The notes under the pieces are model-generated. The model saw nothing but the letters and a program-made list of their open reading frames with translations, made no database searches and was not told the DNA's origin. Below, in pieces: positions 18,835 to 41,434 of a stretch of DNA of 64,000 nucleotides; the first letter of the stretch is position 1, and each line of letters begins with the position of its first letter. The translations under genes and the position numbers were made by a program. This stretch comes from a phage. Location of the stretch: sequence record PZ386951.1; one strand, 5' to 3'.

Positions 18835-19362
18835 TTATGCGAGTACCGTCTTTAACCGTTCTTCAAACTTCCGAAGAGTATTTTGGCGTTCAGCTCTTTG
18901 CTTTTTGTAAGTTTCAATACGCTCTGAAATGAGAGTGTATCGTTCATTTACTGATTCTTTCATAAAATCAGGAATTTCACGAGAAGTTTTAATCTCGTCA
19001 AATTTATCAATAACAGCTTGCTCTTCAGCAATTAAGTTATCATACATCAAAATATCTTTCTTGATGAACTCAATATCTTCTTGAGTTACACGAGATAATT
19101 TAGATGCTTTATCCTTTTTGTACTGTTCGTTAGTATCACGAGACCAGTGTAATGTACGATTTTTATTCGTATTCTTGTAAATTTCTACAATACCAATCTC
19201 ATCGATAATAACGATCCAATTCCAACGGGATTTGTAAATTTGTCCTCCATCAACAGTGATTTCACCTCCGATTGAGATGTCATTAAAGAACTTGCTTTGT
19301 GCTTCTGATTTAAATTTACCATCGTTGTAATTTACCAGGTTGAAAATATCTTTAGCGTTCAT
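18835..19362 (-). CDS. hypothetical protein (175 aa)
   Basis: RBS GGAGG 8 nt upstream of ATG. Confidence 0.6.
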   Translation of the reverse strand: MNAKDIFNLVNYNDGKFKSEAQSKFFNDISIGGEITVDGGQIYKSRWNWIVIIDEIGIVEIYKNTNKNRTLHWSRDTNEQYKKDKASKLSRVTQEDIEFIKKDILMYDNLIAEEQAVIDKFDEIKTSREIPDFMKESVNERYTLISERIETYKKQRAERQNTLRKFEERLKTVLA

Positions 19363-19390
19363 TTTGTGTTCCTCCGTAGTTGATAGTTGT

Positions 19391-19420
19391 ATAGTACCAC
19401 AGAGGAACAGTCTTGTAAAC
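19391..19420 (-). promoter_or_regulatory. T4-type early promoter cassette
   Basis: Minus strand GTTTACaagactgttcctctgTGGTACTAT; leader caactatcaactac shared with copies at 20835 and 36211. Confidence 0.55.
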
Positions 19421-23473: not shown

Positions 23474-23608
23474 AATTACATACTCCTTTGAATCATATCA
23501 ATAATATTGTTCACCAAATTATAAGTAAACATTGGGTAATTATATTGAATCATCACATACACAACAAACAAAATTTTCATTCTCTTCTCCTTGACAGTTG
23601 GCAAGATT

Positions 23609-23638
23609 ACTATACCATAACCTTGCCAACTTGTAAAC
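23609..23638 (-). promoter_or_regulatory. early promoter embedded in a 9-bp inverted repeat (promoter/stem-loop cassette)
   Basis: gttggcaag-attactatacca-taa-ccttgccaac; minus strand GTTTAC ... TGGTATAGT. Confidence 0.5.
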
Positions 23639-27757: not shown

Positions 27758-28219
27758 TCATTGAGTTTTAATTACTGCTTTAGAAGCCTTTCCTGGTAAA
27801 CGACGACTGTTGATAATTGCCATCCTACATTGAAGTGACGGGTTTTTGAACTTCTCATTAGGTTTACAAACCGTAAATCCAAGCCAAAGATTTCCATCTG
27901 TGATTTCTAAACGTCCAGGACGATATTCAACCCCATCAATAAAATCCTCGTCAATGTCAGGACGTGGAGGCATACTCAGGAATTCATTAACTTCTAAAAC
28001 ATGGTCTTTTATTTTATGGAATAATTCAAAAACATATGTCTCATCAATCTCCCGTTGAATTGCACGATCAAGAAGATGCTGAGAATATTTTAGATGAAAC
28101 GATGAGACCCCTGCTGCTTTTGATGCCTCACGAATCTCATTGTTAATTTGACGAAACTCCGACTCAAAGTGACGACGGAGCTTATTTCGACGGATAAAAA
28201 CTTCTGTGTTGATAGTCAT
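27758..28219 (-). CDS. regB: endoribonuclease RegB
   Basis: 153 aa beginning MTINTEVFIRRNKLRRHFESEF, matching recalled T4 RegB. Confidence 0.85.
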   Translation of the reverse strand: MTINTEVFIRRNKLRRHFESEFRQINNEIREASKAAGVSSFHLKYSQHLLDRAIQREIDETYVFELFHKIKDHVLEVNEFLSMPPRPDIDEDFIDGVEYRPGRLEITDGNLWLGFTVCKPNEKFKNPSLQCRMAIINSRRLPGKASKAVIKTQ

Positions 28220-28246
28220 GTTATTCTCCTCTTAACTGATAGAAAA

Positions 28247-28276
28247 ATTATACCACAGTCAAGAGGAAAAGTAAAC
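28247..28276 (-). promoter_or_regulatory. T4-type early promoter upstream of regB
   Basis: Minus strand GTTTACttttcctcttgactgTGGTATAAT. Confidence 0.6.
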
Positions 28277-30425: not shown

Positions 30426-30899
30426 TTATTTGAACGATTTAACGTACTGAATAGAACCTTTACTATTCACGAAAGCGATTTTACCATTTTTATTATACAT
30501 GGTAGCAGTACGCTGATAACCATAAGTTTGCTTACCAGATTGATAACCAACTAATGCAAAATTATCTTCACCCATTTTATTCTGTTTAGCACGAATGCGT
30601 TCATGACCATGTGCCATAAGAACCTTAGCATCACCAGTTGCAATGGATCGACGAGTTTTTTCATCTTCAACTGTATTAACAAAATCGTCAAATGAATCAA
30701 ATTTAGCGTGAGATTTATTATACAGTTTTCCATCTACTGCATAATTATATCCCTGTACATCCATCTCAACTTCTGTACCATCATCCAGTACAGCAGTGAT
30801 TTTTTGACCTTTTTTAAATTTCAAAAGATCAGTAAAAGATTCAGCAATAATTTGAGATTTAATAGCTGCTTCAGTGATAAATTCTTGATATGTTTTCAT
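30426..30899 (-). CDS. internal-protein-like gene with capsid-targeting signal (157 aa), not one of ipI/ipII/ipIII
   Basis: N-terminus MKTYQEFITEA is the CTS/gp21-protease cleavage leader shared with ipII and ipIII; same conserved 5' UTR. Confidence 0.6.
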   Translation of the reverse strand: MKTYQEFITEAAIKSQIIAESFTDLLKFKKGQKITAVLDDGTEVEMDVQGYNYAVDGKLYNKSHAKFDSFDDFVNTVEDEKTRRSIATGDAKVLMAHGHERIRAKQNKMGEDNFALVGYQSGKQTYGYQRTATMYNKNGKIAFVNSKGSIQYVKSFK

Positions 30900-30924
30900 A
30901 TGTTTCCTTTAAATGTAAATATTT
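30876..30924 (-). repeat. ~48 bp direct repeat (CTS codons plus 5' UTR), copy 1 of 3
   Basis: gataaattcttgatatgttttcatatgtttcctttaaatgtaaata also at 31662..31707 and 32282..32330. Confidence 0.8.
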
Positions 30925-31325
30925 TTGCCGTAATACTTATACCAGTGCGGCTTCATTAAAATTTTTTCATCGAGTCGTTGTTGACTCAACCTAATAGCTG
31001 ATTTGCATGGATTATAATCATTTTTCCATTCTACTGGAATATCACTGATGTCAGGAACTTCAGTATCTTTTATACTAAACCTGCGTTTTAAGCATTCCGT
31101 TATAATGTCTGATTGACGCTTTCGCAAAAATTCTAACTTATCGTAAAAGAACGTAACATGACCAGAACCTAAAATAAACTCGGAAGATATTTTAAAATCT
31201 TTAACCCGTTTACCATTTGCCACGTGTTTACGAATTATACCAAAAACACGTGGCAATTCACGGTATTCCGCGATTAAATGTTGATCAGCAAGTTCAGATA
31301 CTAAAGTCAAATTAATACGAGTCAT
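30909..31325 (-). CDS. denV: endonuclease V (pyrimidine-dimer DNA glycosylase)
   Basis: 138 aa beginning [17 protein letters not shown], matching recalled T4 endoV. Confidence 0.9.
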
Positions 31326-31350
31326 TTTACCCCTCCAAGTAATTATGAAT

Positions 31351-31380
31351 ATACTATCACAATTCTAGGAGAAAGTAAAC
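31351..31380 (-). promoter_or_regulatory. early promoter in a stem-loop cassette upstream of denV
   Basis: ~40 bp near-identical to 32355..32394; 8-bp inverted repeat around the -10 (TGaTAGTAT), GTTTAC -35. Confidence 0.5.
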
Positions 31381-31382
31381 TG

Positions 31383-31685
31383 TTATTTACCTTTAATTAC
31401 TTTAGCTGCTTCGATAGCCGCTTGCTGAAGGTCATCCATAGACATACCGAATTTAGAAGCAAAGTTATCAATTTTCTTTTCGACAGCATTCAAAGGCTTG
31501 GCCTGTTTACCTTCATTAGCGCCAGGAAGAGCGAGAATACGCTCTTTGTCAATATAAAGGCTTACAAGTTTCTTACGGTCTTTATCGGACAAATCATGAA
31601 ATGAATGGGCCTTTTTATTTATAGCGGCTTCTAATTTACCTGCACTCACTCGCGCTTCAGTAATAAATTCTTGATATGTTTTCAT
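31383..31685 (-). CDS. ipII: internal protein II
   Basis: 100 aa, N-terminal CTS MKTYQEFITEA; position denV-ipII-ipIII-e as in T4. Confidence 0.8.
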   Translation of the reverse strand: MKTYQEFITEARVSAGKLEAAINKKAHSFHDLSDKDRKKLVSLYIDKERILALPGANEGKQAKPLNAVEKKIDNFASKFGMSMDDLQQAAIEAAKVIKGK

Positions 31686-31707
31686 ATGTTTCCTTTAAAT
31701 GTAAATA
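31662..31707 (-). repeat. direct repeat (CTS plus 5' UTR), copy 2 of 3
   Basis: See 30876..30924. Confidence 0.8.
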
Positions 31708-31726
31708 GGTCTGAGTATTAGCTTTA

Positions 31727-32305
31727 TTAGGAATTACGGGCTGCATTAGCAACGGCATACGCGTACTGAACATTAGCGTCTTTAAACGTACCTTTAGAGG
31801 TATCTATTTCTGCCTTAAAGCCGCCTTTAGTCATAACATCGGCAAATTCTTTACGGAAAGCCATTGCATCAAGACCTTTCCATGATGATTTATGCTTGGC
31901 GAATTCAAGACCAGCGTAGTTGACAGCCTTAGCTAATTTATTATCAATAACCCATTTACCAGCTTTAGGCACAAACTTCGGGCCTTTCTGTTTAGAGAAC
32001 AGTTTTAAATTCCAGCGGCGAAGGTCACTGTCGGCTTTAACAAAAGCTGCGTCTAAGTTACTAGCAACAACATCTTCAATATGAGCAAATTTAAGTCCGT
32101 CAACTTCAATATTTAGATCGGTACGCCAGCGAAGTCCTTCCCAAGCGAAGGCTTTAAAGTCGGAAGCCTTTGTAGCTAAGTACCGTTCAATAGGAGCTGT
32201 TTTAGGGTCAAAGCCGTTTCCTGATCGGTAGGTCCACTCATCTTTGTTAATGCCTTTGGCCTTTACTACAGAAACTTCGGCAATAAATTCTTGATATGTT
32301 TTCAT
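31727..32305 (-). CDS. ipIII: internal protein III
   Basis: 192 aa, CTS MKTYQEFIAEV; basic Lys/Ala-rich; position before e. Confidence 0.8.
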   Translation of the reverse strand: MKTYQEFIAEVSVVKAKGINKDEWTYRSGNGFDPKTAPIERYLATKASDFKAFAWEGLRWRTDLNIEVDGLKFAHIEDVVASNLDAAFVKADSDLRRWNLKLFSKQKGPKFVPKAGKWVIDNKLAKAVNYAGLEFAKHKSSWKGLDAMAFRKEFADVMTKGGFKAEIDTSKGTFKDANVQYAYAVANAARNS

Positions 32306-32330
32306 ATGTTTCCTTTAAATGTAAATATTT
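32282..32330 (-). repeat. direct repeat (CTS plus 5' UTR), copy 3 of 3
   Basis: See 30876..30924. Confidence 0.8.
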
Positions 32331-32364
32331 TAATTAGTAATTGTCTATTCAAGTAATTGTGAAT

Positions 32365-32394
32365 ATACTATCACAATTCCAAGAGAAAGTAAAC
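32365..32394 (-). promoter_or_regulatory. early promoter in a stem-loop cassette upstream of ipIII
   Basis: Near-identical copy of the 31341..31380 cassette. Confidence 0.5.
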
Positions 32395-36240: not shown

Positions 36241-36374
36241 CGTTTTGTGAAAAAATTTTAAAAATTTTTAGGGAATTCTAGGGTCAGGAGGGGCAATTAA
36301 AAGGTAGGATAATATATTATAAAGGGTATAAACTAAATGATGCCTAGAGAGGCCAAGAAAGGCCTAGATACAAA

Positions 36375-36401
36375 AAATCCCTATCATTTAGATAGGGATT
36401 T
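36375..36401 (-). terminator. intrinsic terminator (11-bp stem aaatccctatc/gatagggattt, then T run on minus strand)
   Basis: Directly after the stop of CDS 36406..36969. Confidence 0.6.
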
Positions 36402-36405
36402 AAAA

Positions 36406-36969
36406 TTATTTACCCAGTTTAGTTATTATAGCTTCGGCAGCAGCTTTTAGCTTAGATGCAGTGTTAATACGATTTTTAATTTCAGTATACGCATCGCCAA
36501 GAACATCAAGGCTATCTGAATAAACACTTACACTATTGCGTTCACTATTTGAAATAGAACCTTTAGTTTTACGATCAAAATCGGTGTACACGTCTTGAAG
36601 ATCGCGGGCTGCCTTCTTTGCATCATCCAATGCATCAAGAGCTTTATTTAAAGCATTAACATATTTTTTAGTGTCAAACATATTCTTAGAAATTTTGACG
36701 GGTGCGCGTTCAGGAGTAGCTAAGGCAGATTTAGGAACCTGAGCGCCTGATGCCAGTTTCTTAGAAATTTTGAAAAATGCTTTATTGAATTTATTTTCTT
36801 GACTCATCGTAAAAGAACTATTATCGATGTTATACATTTCAATAGCTTTAGCTTTCCACTTAAGAAAATCGCCCCGGTCTTTTGGGTCCAAGTGGAAGAA
36901 TACTTTAGTAAGATCTGCTTCAGATGGTAATTTTGCTGCTTCGGTTAAAAATTCGGCATAGGTTTTCAT
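36406..36969 (-). CDS. internal-protein-like gene with capsid-targeting signal (187 aa)
   Basis: N-terminus MKTYAEFLTEAAK (CTS-like, predicted gp21 cleavage after LTE); RBS AAGGA. Confidence 0.55.
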   Translation of the reverse strand: MKTYAEFLTEAAKLPSEADLTKVFFHLDPKDRGDFLKWKAKAIEMYNIDNSSFTMSQENKFNKAFFKISKKLASGAQVPKSALATPERAPVKISKNMFDTKKYVNALNKALDALDDAKKAARDLQDVYTDFDRKTKGSISNSERNSVSVYSDSLDVLGDAYTEIKNRINTASKLKAAAEAIITKLGK

Positions 36970-37745: not shown

Positions 37746-38231
37746 TTATTTTATGTAATATTTATTTAAAAACTTTCTAGCTTGAGTGTGGCTAACATTT
37801 ATAGCATTTGCATAATTTTTAATAAAACCTCGTTCATCCATATTAAAATTTTCTAATATTTTTAATCGTCTAGTTATCTCATCTTGACTTAAAGTACTTG
37901 CATTATTTTTAGAAATTTTTTCTAAGGACTGAACTGAGTGTTTTCGACCACTAAAATTAAAATTTTTAGATTTTGGAGGAAATCTATCATTTAGTCTGGC
38001 ATCTTTTGTATTTTGATTATTGGTTGCGCAATATATGTTATTTAATGAATACGGTCCTTTATCACCAAAACGACACATGCAGTATTCATGACCCTTTCTT
38101 CCACGCTTATCATAATTTCCCGTTGATTTCCACCAATGCAACCACTCATCAAAAGTTAAATTCCATTCAATGTTTCTACGTATAGCAGAATTCCGCTGAG
38201 AAATATATTTTGCATAATCTTCTTTCATCAC
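37746..38231 (-). CDS. HNH-family endonuclease-like protein (161 aa) between the two tRNA sub-clusters
   Basis: Central CRFGDKGPYSLNNIYCATNNQN resembles the HNH_3 core (first His not obvious); C-terminal helix-turn-helix-like tail. Confidence 0.45.
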   Translation of the reverse strand: MMKEDYAKYISQRNSAIRRNIEWNLTFDEWLHWWKSTGNYDKRGRKGHEYCMCRFGDKGPYSLNNIYCATNNQNTKDARLNDRFPPKSKNFNFSGRKHSVQSLEKISKNNASTLSQDEITRRLKILENFNMDERGFIKNYANAINVSHTQARKFLNKYYIK

Positions 38232-38691: not shown

Positions 38692-38788
38692 ATTATTAAC
38701 AAAGGCTCTTAAGCAAGAACCCTTGATGATAGAGGGTATTAATCAGTGCGATATGAGTTAATAATAACAAATAATTCTTAAAGCATAT

Positions 38789-39076
38789 TTACCATTTATG
38801 ATAATACATATTTACGATGCATTCAAGACCCAAAGGATTCTTGAAAATATCATATTCAAGAGGACCTTTTTCCGTTTCAATAAAGAAATCAAAGTTAACT
38901 GTATTAAATTTACGGTCTTCCTTCACTAATTTAACTTGAGAAGATGAACGGTCAATGTAAACCTTTTCAACTTCAAAACATGTTAAAACGCCATAATCAT
39001 CAATCAAGGCTTTAGCCGCGTCTTGATCATATTTATATCCATTTTCAATGGACGATACTTTAGCATAAAGAATCAT
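38789..39076 (-). CDS. hypothetical protein (95 aa)
   Basis: ORF upstream of the tRNA cluster. Confidence 0.5.
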   Translation of the reverse strand: MILYAKVSSIENGYKYDQDAAKALIDDYGVLTCFEVEKVYIDRSSSQVKLVKEDRKFNTVNFDFFIETEKGPLEYDIFKNPLGLECIVNMYYHKW

Positions 39077-39079
39077 TAT

Positions 39080-39460
39080 TTACCCTTCATCAACAATAGT
39101 ATGAGTGTGGGCATTTACAATTTGCCACCAATCAAAGCGATTAGAACCATACATTGGTTTGTTCTCATTTTCTTTGATAATGTCACGGAGTTCATCTTCG
39201 GTAGCGGCTTTCGCGATTAAATCAGCATATCCACCGCGAGGATAATAATTATCACCTGCAAAAAGTAAAAAGTTCGGTTTAATATTATTGAACTCTTCAA
39301 GAGTAATAACTTTTCCTGTCGGTTGAACAATCTCTACATATTTATATCCTAATTTTTGAGCAGCATCTACTGCTTCAAGCAAAGTATCATGAGCCCATCC
39401 AATTTGACAACCTGGCTTTTCAGATGGATTAGCCTGATAATCCGCGTACACTTTATACAT
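39080..39460 (-). CDS. hypothetical protein (~126 aa)
   Basis: Start at MYKVYADY, abutting the upstream stop. Confidence 0.5.
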   Translation of the reverse strand: MYKVYADYQANPSEKPGCQIGWAHDTLLEAVDAAQKLGYKYVEIVQPTGKVITLEEFNNIKPNFLLFAGDNYYPRGGYADLIAKAATEDELRDIIKENENKPMYGSNRFDWWQIVNAHTHTIVDEG

Positions 39461-39461
39461 T

Positions 39462-39647
39462 CTATTCACCTTTAGAAATTTTATCCATAACGATAGCAAT
39501 TAAACCAATTAAAAATGCTACTACAAGTGAAAAAACATTTTCTGCTGTAGTCAATAATCCGCATATAAATCCAACAAACATTGAAAAACTAAAAGCAGAA
39601 GCAGAAATTGCAATAGCAACATTTCGAATTAATTCACAACGTTTCAT
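39462..39647 (-). CDS. small membrane protein (61 aa)
   Basis: Two short hydrophobic helices. Confidence 0.4.
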   Translation of the reverse strand: MKRCELIRNVAIAISASAFSFSMFVGFICGLLTTAENVFSLVVAFLIGLIAIVMDKISKGE

Positions 39648-39675
39648 TTTATTCTCCTCAGTAGTTGATAGGGTA

Positions 39676-39705
39676 ATAGTATCACTACCCTATCTAAAAG
39701 TAAAC
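39676..39705 (-). promoter_or_regulatory. early promoter in a stem-loop cassette (downstream flank of the ipI-locus gene)
   Basis: Inverted repeat gataggg/ccctatc around -10 TGaTACTAT; GTTTAC -35; contains the 16-bp direct repeat taatagtatcactacc. Confidence 0.5.
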
Positions 39706-39939
39706 TCATTTTTTACGAAAAATTGATTTATTTTCTGCTGCCCATTTTTCAATAACTGCAGCCGGACCAGTAACAACAATTTTATCACCGTAATCTTCTG
39801 CGGCGAGTTGACCGAAATTATCTAATGCATCACGAAGAACTCCATGAGGCATTTCACCCATTTTATCTTTCTTGCCAGTGTAAATAAACTCAACTTTTAC
39901 ATCAGAAGATTCAGCGATAAATTCTTTAAACGTTTTCAT
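39706..39939 (-). CDS. internal protein at the ipI locus (77 aa precursor with CTS)
   Basis: N-terminus MKTFKEFIAES (CTS); position between 57B and the tRNA region as for T4 ipI; body does not obviously match recalled IPI. Confidence 0.6.
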   Translation of the reverse strand: MKTFKEFIAESSDVKVEFIYTGKKDKMGEMPHGVLRDALDNFGQLAAEDYGDKIVVTGPAAVIEKWAAENKSIFRKK

Positions 39940-39969
39940 TTTATTTTCCTAATTAATTTTGATGAGATA

Positions 39970-39999
39970 ATAGTATCACTACCTCATCAGCATGTAAAC
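39970..39999 (-). promoter_or_regulatory. early promoter in a stem-loop cassette (upstream flank of the ipI-locus gene)
   Basis: Inverted repeat gatgag/ctcatc around TGaTACTAT; GTTTAC -35; second copy of taatagtatcactacc. Confidence 0.5.
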
Positions 40000-40011
40000 A
40001 ACTTTGTGAAA

Positions 40012-40708
<697 letters not shown>

Positions 40709-40709
<1 letters not shown>

Positions 40710-41434
40710 TATAGTACCTTTAGTGTATTTTTAATTTTAGAAAAAAGTTCTTCAAGAGAACCATCGTTTGTAATTACTAAATCGCCATCACGAATTGGCA
40801 ATCCAGCTTCTGTAATATGTTTATCATTGGATTTTTGACCAGGACGAACTACATGAATTACTGTAGCACCCATCGCCCTAGCCGCATCCATTTCATGATC
40901 TTGACGAGTATCAGGAACGATATAATAATCATAACCTGAGTTAAATTTATCAAGATAATCTAAAGCAAATAATTTTACCCAGTACATGCGATCGAAGTTA
41001 TTAACAATCAAATCCGTACCTAGGGCTTGCATCAGACGACGGACTGACCATTGATCTTCAATATTATTTATAACGTCAGTAATCTTGTTAAATGCTACGA
41101 AATTAACTGATTCTTTTCCTTCGTCATTAAAAACAAACACACCTTTAATTGGGCTTTTACCATTAAGATAGCAAAATGCTTGTTCCATAATCGTGATTAC
41201 TTCTAATTTAGTCAGATTTAAATTAGTCTCACGATCATAGTCAATTCCTTCAAACTCTTTACGAGTTAAGCAAGGATAGTCAGTGTTTGCTGCAAATACT
41301 CCCCATGCATAAGCCAATGCATCCTTAATAGGACCAGCAAGTTGGTATTTAACTGCAGAATAATTGCTCATGATAAAATCAGCAGTAGTATCTTTTCCAC
41401 TACGCTTTACACCGCTTAAAAAGATTAGTTTCAT
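40709..41434 (-). CDS. 1: deoxynucleoside monophosphate kinase
   Basis: 241 aa from MKLIFLSGVKRSGKDTT (P-loop); the track ORF extends 13 codons further upstream. Confidence 0.9.

Follow-up and report, generated by a model that had tools for sequence, protein, structure and literature searches.

The stretch analysed here, 64,000 nucleotides of sequence record PZ386951.1 that we refer to as the window, is part of a Tequatrovirus (T4-like) genome: a 1.8-kb query at the locus matched 850 phage records, with a best identity of 97.9%. On the minus strand, the genes follow the T4 order of gp2, gp3, dNMP kinase (gene 1), 57A, 57B, and an ORF of 77 aa, after which homologs of trna.4, trna.3, and trna.2 precede the tRNA cluster. 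The 57B homolog (40012-40467, minus strand; 151 aa) was assigned from its match to phrog_755 (E = 5e-68) and the T4 annotation, and the trna.4 homolog (39462-39647, minus strand), a predicted membrane protein of 61 aa, from phrog_1692 (E = 6e-35) and the T4 annotation. These conserved genes are the borders of a variable slot, 57B on the left and trna.4 on the right, the latter lying downstream of the last promoter cassette in nearly all loci. Because the 77-aa ORF is situated between 57B and trna.4, it occupies the slot of T4 ipI. This region represents the first internal-protein (IP) locus of a Tequatrovirus, in which ip6 replaces the ipI of T4.

The gene in the slot, ip6 (39706-39939, minus strand), was identified as an ORF for an internal (injected) head protein of 77 aa through its match to phrog_8111, 'internal virion protein' (E = 3e-51). 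In GiZh, JK38, fFiEco06, and VR26, this gene carries the annotation ip6 or ipVI, and homologs at 73-95% identity bear the names Ip6 or internal head protein. The family is narrow: a database of 5.8 billion proteins held 11 homolog clusters, all from T4-like phages. The N terminus of Ip6 is the capsid-targeting sequence MKTFKEFIAE, which fits the pattern MK(T/S)(F/Y)xEF...E, and cleavage by the prohead protease after Glu10 would yield a mature protein of 67 aa. Judged from this leader, Ip6 is probably packaged into the capsid and injected.

The relationship between Ip6 and T4 IPI was evaluated at the levels of sequence and structure. The BLASTP alignment of the two proteins was restricted to residues 1-14. 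Searches with Ip6 of Pfam and, using phmmer, of the PDB returned no match; the same PDB search with IPI recovered 2jub. The AF2 model of Ip6, based on an alignment of eight sequences, had a pLDDT of 81 and a beta-alpha-beta-beta-alpha-beta fold. The top match of this model in BFVD was Ip6 of phage VR7 (E = 8.5e-12). Using Foldseek against the PDB, the best E value was 0.047, the matches being generic small alpha/beta folds and none of them significant, and 2JUB was absent from the top 50 PDB structure matches. The possibility that Ip6 is a diverged IPI was ruled out by the absence of BLASTP similarity past residue 14 and of a fold match. The 77-aa protein is the named alternative internal protein Ip6, not IPI.

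Promoter cassettes flank ip6 on both sides. The upstream cassette, A, extends from the 57B stop to ip6 (39959-40010, minus strand) and was delineated from the sequence, repeat and promoter scans, and DNA folding. It comprises an AT-rich segment, TTTCACAAAGTT, a -35 element, TTTACA (39998-39993), a spacer of 17 nt, and a TG-extended -10 element, TACTAT (39975-39970). The downstream cassette, C, lies between the ip6 stop and trna.4 (39665-39705, minus strand), with a -35 element, TTTACT, at 39704-39699 and a -10 element, TACTAT, at 39681-39676. Both predicted promoters read GTTTAC[A/T]-N17-TACTAT with TG at -15/-14, the upstream copy having A and the downstream copy T, and both match the T-even early consensus published for PST/T4, TTTACW-N17-TAYWAT. 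This agreement suggests that both cassettes are active as promoters. A generic sigma-70 scan scored the upstream promoter at 9/12 and the downstream promoter at 8/12 and reported only the former; a T4-specific pattern was therefore required to find the latter.

Each cassette is joined to a leader. The 'a'-type leader of ip6, AAAATTAATTAGGAAAATAAA, contains the ribosome-binding site and occupies 39940-39958 (minus strand), and the 'c'-type leader, AACTACTGAGGAGAATAAA, together with the start of trna.4 (ATG at 39647-39645), occupies 39642-39664 (minus strand). These units recur in other phages. Cassette A is also found ahead of ipI (T4 and JK38) and of ip5 (GiZh), and cassette C also follows ip6 in GiZh, JK38, FL08, 101117BS1, JLBYU24, and BCH953P4. 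An identical 'a' leader stands ahead of ipI, ip5, and an Ip of 102 aa in other phages.

The two cassettes share a 16-mer, TAATAGTATCACTACC, of which the window contains two exact copies, at 39674-39689 and 39968-39983. At up to 3 mismatches, the 64-kb window held three further matches, all at unrelated sites, with 0.61 expected from shuffles. A 41-nt direct repeat (39665-39705 versus 39959-39999; 78% identity) has the 16-mer as its core and adjoins a 25-nt repeat, D2 (39642-39666 versus 39934-39958; 84% identity), that spans the Shine-Dalgarno sequence and start codon and includes the two leaders. Together, the 41-nt and 25-nt repeats constitute a unit of approximately 65 nt, the copies of which are 292-294 nt apart and flank the 77-aa gene.

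In each cassette, an inverted repeat encloses the -10 element. The upstream arms are located at 39960-39969 and 39980-39989 (10 positions with one G-T mismatch) and the downstream arms at 39667-39675 and 39686-39694 (9 bp). The upstream hairpin is TGATGAGGTA-GTGATACTAT-TATCTCATCA and the downstream hairpin is GATAGGGTA-GTGATACTAT-TACCCTATC, the 10-nt loop, GTGATACTAT, being common to both. Folded as DNA, the upstream hairpin had an energy of -5.4 kcal/mol (z = -2.2 versus shuffles) and the downstream hairpin an energy of -6.9 kcal/mol (z = -3.6); the corresponding RNA values were -14.8 and -16.4 kcal/mol. The initial annotation had described a 77-aa protein with a capsid-targeting sequence, with no obvious match to IPI in its body, between two early-promoter cassettes that each contain an exact 16-mer and an inverted repeat around the -10 element. 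Every part of this description was borne out: T4-type -35 and -10 elements stand on each side of the gene, the 16-mer copies and hairpin arms lie at the coordinates given above, the DNA folds support the inverted repeats, and the resemblance to T4 IPI does not extend past residue 14.

We next considered the hairpin across IP loci. For 48 unique cassettes, the mean fold z-score versus shuffles was -3.2, and most formed a stem across the -10 element; most of the remaining early promoters in the window had z-scores near 0. The stems of these cassettes include unrelated sequences, such as TGATGAGGTA/TACCTCATCA, GGTAGGACTA/TAGTCCTACC, AGGTCTATAG/CTATAGACCT, and GTGTAGGGATA/TATCCCTACAC. Two hairpin registers predominated, centred at -10 position 1/2 and 3 nt upstream, which ruled out one fixed register for every cassette; pairs were accordingly counted by a custom script rather than from one consensus structure. 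The frequency of Watson-Crick pairing was 0.46 and 0.41 in register versus 0.19-0.32 when the 3' partner was slid by 1-4 nt. Similarly, at least 8 of 11 pairs were formed by 51% of cassettes using their own arms versus 19% of those cross-paired between cassettes, both tests being calculated regardless of the phylogenetic relatedness of the cassettes. The excess of in-register and own-arm pairing indicates, uncorrected for that relatedness, that the hairpin structure is maintained by compensatory change. The hairpin is therefore probably functional in its own right. Several hybrid cassettes persist despite imperfect hairpins.

To sample the slot, we used 36 Tevenvirinae loci from IMG/VR, anchored on 57B, and 7 GenBank phages (43 loci in total). 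The anchoring replaced an uninformative IMG/VR scan for the exact 16-mer, which had returned 108 stretches, mostly chance occurrences in unrelated contigs, with approximately 6 on T4-like contigs. Between 57B and trna.4, the number of leader-bearing genes ranged from none, in a locus with a single cassette (L009), to five (L019), and the same Ip families occurred in differing orders and combinations across loci. In GenBank phages, the ip6, ipI, and ip5 gene bodies were present in 222, 164, and 252, respectively, of the 850 records matching the locus.

Comparison of individual loci revealed where the exchanges lie. JK38 has the arrangement 57B-[A]-ipI-[B]-ip6-[C]-trna.4. In T4, the arrangement is 57B-[A]-ipI-[B/C hybrid]-trna.4, without ip6, and the switch from B to C occurs within the shared core, GTGATACTATTACCCTATCAA. 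FL08, BCH953P4, and the window share the arrangement 57B-[A]-ip6-[C]-trna.4. In the window, the A cassette and leader are intact and run through the codons ACG TTT AAA GAA TTT into the ip6 body. Of these codons, TTT AAA encode the ipI-like residues F-K, at which ip6 of JK38 has Y-Q. Thus, with ipI-type codons preceding the ip6 body, the crossover in the window lies in the leader codons, outside the 16-mer.

Further hybrid cassettes were found in two of the IMG/VR loci. In L027, the cassette at position 469 combines a B 5' arm with an a-type 3' arm and leader, and the one at position 802 a C 5' arm with an a-type 3' arm. The latter combination also occurs in L020 at position 1174, where the core GATACTATTACCTCATCAA is duplicated, and the L020 cassette at position 843 has a D 5' arm with an a-type 3' arm. 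In all four, the break is at the -10 core. This pattern is as would be expected if the cassettes and leader codons were the usual crossover sites. The initial annotation had also called the ipI locus hypervariable and raised modular shuffling at the cassettes. Hypervariability was confirmed by the range of zero to five leader-bearing genes over 43 loci. The alignment with T4 and relatives proposed in that annotation revealed gain, loss, and replacement bounded by cassettes, as in the series of JK38, T4, and the window; deletion and hybrid junctions at the -10 core, with that of the window in the leader codons, lend support to the shuffling. Rather than identity with T4 ipI and an absence of polymorphism, the counter-case named in the annotation, we found an ip6 body and variable content.

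The window contains a second IP locus with the same architecture as the ip6 locus. In it, a 45-nt promoter/hairpin repeat of 93% identity, with copies at 32350-32394 and 31336-31380 and the stem AATTGTGA/TCACAATT, stands on either side of the pair formed by ipIII (32305-31727) and ipII (31685-31383). A 57-nt repeat comprising the leader and targeting sequence occurs in three copies (32275-32331, 31655-31711, and 30869-30925). The capsid-targeting motif recurs in four other ORFs of the window, ipIII and ipII among them.

Based on these data, we consider it likely, with a probability of roughly 85%, that the ip6 slot uses its promoter/hairpin cassettes as portable homology for deleting, adding, and swapping ip genes. 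As envisaged, ip6 would be a self-contained module with its own T4-type early promoter, ribosome-binding site, start codon, and approximately 10 targeting codons. The cassettes of about 65 nt and the conserved leader codons would act as portable patches of homology, in which homologous recombination of the phage could cross over during mixed infection or replication. Such a crossover would delete, insert, or exchange whole ip genes and would always rebuild a working promoter and leader. T4 can recombine at microhomologies of only 6-10 bp, and the identical core of 16-21 bp, set in about 65 nt of similar sequence, more than suffices for general recombination. Because nearly any short homology supports recombination in T4-like phages, the cassettes may be merely permissive of shuffling rather than evolved for it.

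As for the protein, Ip6 most likely enters the prohead core via its leader, is trimmed after Glu10, and is injected with the DNA. Ip1, Ip2, and Ip3 each inhibit one distinct GmrSD type IV restriction enzyme (PMC12373910), and by analogy the probable task of injected Ip6 is to inactivate a host nuclease directed against glucosyl-hydroxymethylcytosine DNA. Since neither its sequence nor its fold detectably resembles that of IPI*, an anti-GmrSD role for Ip6 is proposed by analogy only. A literature search on Ip6 function found no paper and none assigning it a target.

The hairpin itself most likely serves as a 3'-end structure in RNA that reads through from the upstream gene. Initiation at the cassettes' own promoters would occur within the 3' arm, near 39963 and 39669, and the resulting transcripts would therefore be without the full hairpin. 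Only read-through RNA from the upstream gene would contain both arms, which fits a 3'-end or stability element. A stricter version of this idea, in which the inverted repeats are terminators or RNA-processing signals and nothing else, so that this function explains their conservation and the direct repeat is a by-product, is possible, although we regard it as doubtful. The hairpins lie 15-30 nt past the stop codon of the upstream gene, their RNA folds have the energies given above, and the analogous elements known as PeSLs have been called composite promoter-terminator motifs (Comeau 2014, PMC4122927), all of which would suit such signals. However, the stems are AT-rich and are followed by AAAATTAATT and AACTACTGAGG with no T-run, and a terminator scan of 38700-41000 found no terminator-like site, which rules out an intrinsic (Rho-independent) terminator and leaves a classical terminator role unsupported. 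A search of Rfam with 39400-40200, at E values up to 1, matched no RNA family. Moreover, an RNA signal leaves the exact identity of the loop and core and the hybrid cassettes unexplained, and it is compatible with the use of the cassettes as recombination patches rather than exclusive of it.

A less favoured alternative is that the cassettes are two ordinary early promoters, whose likeness stems from the consensus and a tandem ip duplication, so that recombination would be incidental and the repeats would contribute nothing to shuffling. Some dozen early promoters of the window do share TTTCACAAAGTTGTTTACA upstream and ACTATCAACTACTGA downstream at sites that are not variable, and T4 can delete or amplify DNA at microhomologies of 6-10 bp anywhere. 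Yet none of the roughly 10 other early promoters of the window came within 3 mismatches of the 16-mer, and the flanking copies therefore exceed the likeness demanded by the promoter consensus. The breaks of at least five independent hybrid cassettes at the -10 core and the recurrence of the architecture at the second IP locus likewise argue against ordinary promoters. Finally, no sequence relationship exists between the Ip bodies, so that no trace of a duplication with later divergence can be seen. We consider this alternative unlikely.

Two readings in which the hairpin takes part in the exchange directly are less likely still. That the hairpin is an active element, extruded as a cruciform or single-strand hairpin and cut or bound by a dedicated phage or host factor as part of a site-directed, integron-like exchanger for injected anti-defence proteins, with Ip6 acting against a defence other than the GmrSD enzymes that Ip1-3 block, seems to us highly improbable. 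Least probable of all is an integron-like site-specific system, in which a dedicated phage or host nuclease or recombinase recognises the -10 hairpin or cruciform and moves ip cassettes as mini-circles. It could account for a hairpin kept by compensatory changes despite very different stems and for breakpoints clustered at the loop and core, and there is a precedent in distantly related RB49/phi1, where experiments revealed mini-circles of PeSLs and the authors speculated on a specific binding protein (Arbiol 2010, PMC2839356). Against it, the locus has no known or evident recombinase, certain junctions fall outside the hairpin, in leader codons or elsewhere, ordinary T4 recombination suffices at such lengths of homology, and the unconserved stem sequences make sequence-specific recognition unlikely.

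Of all phage molecules, internal proteins are the earliest to encounter the defences of the host. If cassettes serve as portable homology, a locus that swaps ip genes would explain the quick retuning of host range in T4-like phages, and such swapping would be relevant to the choice or engineering of therapeutic phages. With ip6 in place of ipI, the window phage would be expected to be sensitive to CT596-type GmrS/GmrD, the target of IPI, and to withstand whatever Ip6 counters. The practical consequence for the window is modest, and the mechanism and architecture are established knowledge.

The locus may be compared with several known systems. Integron cassettes resemble it in being small, promoter-adjacent genes bounded by imperfect inverted repeats and shuffled in a dedicated locus (Arbiol 2010, PMC2839356). 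Unlike integrons, the IP locus has no integrase and no attC/attI sites, its cassettes each bring a promoter, and general homologous recombination is the simplest explanation of exchange. T4 IPI and Ip6 share the genomic slot, the upstream cassette and leader, the start MKTFKEF, and a similar small size. Eight of their first 14 residues are identical, whereas nothing is similar beyond residue 14. In addition, IPI is cleaved after residue 19 and Ip6, with its shorter leader, presumably after residue 10. Finally, IPI* (PDB 2JUB) is an injected inhibitor of the type IV enzyme GmrS/GmrD; the Ip6 model has no significant match in the PDB.

The PeSLs described for RB49/phi1, PST/T4, and nt-1/KVP40 are also comparable to the cassettes. 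Like them, they are composites of an AT-rich segment, promoter, stem-loop, Shine-Dalgarno sequence, and ATG that flank small non-essential genes in variable regions and leave chimeric cassettes at junctions, and recombination between copies has been proposed to delete, insert, and swap genes (PMC2839356; PMC4122927). The PeSLs of RB49/phi1 differ from the cassettes in two respects. Their promoter is a near-perfect sigma-70 sequence, TTGACA-N17-TATAAT, in contrast to TTTACA or TTTACT with TACTAT here (9/12 and 8/12). Their stem-loop is G/C-rich (G-run...C-run) and upstream of the promoter, in contrast to the AT-rich stem that straddles the -10 element here. They also form extrachromosomal mini-circles by recombination between flanking copies; the exchange products seen here are natural deletions and hybrids.

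The closest counterpart is the T-even element itself. Repoila, Tetart, Bouet and Krisch reportedly described, in 1994, a sequence of about 70 bp made up of an early promoter and an overlapping inverted repeat. It is said to flank most ip ORFs on both sides, 10 ORFs having been covered, and recombinational shuffling is said to have been proposed on this basis. In Arbiol 2010, the PeSL-like sequences at both of the highly variable IP loci are credited to Repoila et al. 1994, and the elements are characterized as T4 early promoters with weaker, AT-rich stem-loops (PMC2839356). The same authors regard them as analogs, not homologs, of the RB49/phi1 PeSLs, suggest that they may cause the plasticity of the loci and may confine ip shuffling to them, and cite more than 30 Ip variants (PMC2839356). 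In the window, the leader-bearing ORF has on either side an early-promoter sequence overlapped by an inverted repeat, and, in association with these elements, related phages differ in how many ip genes they carry, which ones, and in what order. As far as the 1994 elements are described in the sources cited here, all of their defining features are thus present in the window, with no essential difference. The arrangement has been known since 1994 and is a textbook feature of T-even phages rather than a discovery.

The second internal-protein (IP) locus of the window comprises ipIII (32305-31727) and ipII (31685-31383), both on the minus strand. The pair is flanked on both sides by a 45-nt promoter/hairpin direct repeat (93% identity; minus strand), the copies of which occupy 32350-32394 and 31336-31380. 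The downstream copy is the predicted denV promoter. The design of this locus (31336-32394) is the same as that of the first IP locus. A second, 57-nt repeat occurs three times in the window (30869-30925, 31655-31711, and 32275-32331), with 93-95% identity among copies. It spans the leader, the ribosome-binding site, and ~10 codons at the start of the capsid-targeting sequence. Two of the copies stand before ipIII and ipII, and the remaining one before another leader-bearing gene.

Two further leader-bearing proteins are encoded on the minus strand of the window. The first, a 157-aa protein (MKTYQEFITEAA...; 30426-30899), lies downstream of denV and matched Pfam DUF7412 (E 1e-95). It is an additional internal protein; those reported for T4 are Ip1-3 only (PMC12373910). 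The second, of 187 aa (MKTYAEFLTEAA...; 36406-36969), lies directly beyond the tRNA/small-RNA cluster. At this gene the early-promoter cassette is absent, and a clear hairpin with a T-run follows it at about 36370-36395. The site may be a third internal-protein site that is regulated differently.

The promoter/hairpin design is not confined to ip genes, since an early promoter that belongs to neither IP locus (23590-23637, minus strand) carries a 15-bp stem across its -10 element. The stem, AGTTGGCAAGGTTAT...GTAATCTTGCCAACT, contains one G-T wobble, and the RNA fold of the hairpin was scored at -21.7 kcal/mol (z -5.4, relative to shuffled sequences). Two other early promoters on the minus strand, at about 28200-28275 and about 19345-19419, each have a spacer that complements the Shine-Dalgarno region of the gene downstream, with long-fold z values of -4.6 and -4.4, respectively. 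Such pairing would mask the ribosome-binding site on read-through transcripts but would leave it accessible on those initiated at the local promoter.

Related phages present variant states of the first IP locus, the interval between 57B and trna.4. Phage vB_EcoM-101117BS1 (MZ234018) carries a copy of ipI (2120-2410) upstream of ip6. This copy, which a 3-nt insertion and an in-frame stop interrupt, has been annotated as a pair of short CDS and looks like a pseudogene remaining between intact cassettes. In IMGVR_UViG_2706796299_000001, the -10/3'-arm segment of a cassette about 1174 from the 57B start is tandemly duplicated (GATACTATTACCTCATCAA twice), which looks like a trace left when the core underwent unequal crossing-over or slippage. 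Finally, the interval in IMGVR_UViG_3300030021_000002 contains zero ip genes and retains one cassette with a 10-bp stem (GGTAGGACTA/TAGTCCTACC). This is the 'empty site' state of the locus.

Within the tRNA cluster of the window, a 161-aa ORF (37746-38231, minus strand) matched phrog_16521 (E 1e-54), a family of unknown function, and a Pfam search of the ORF returned no match. Its position approximates that of the homing endonuclease gene segB in T4.
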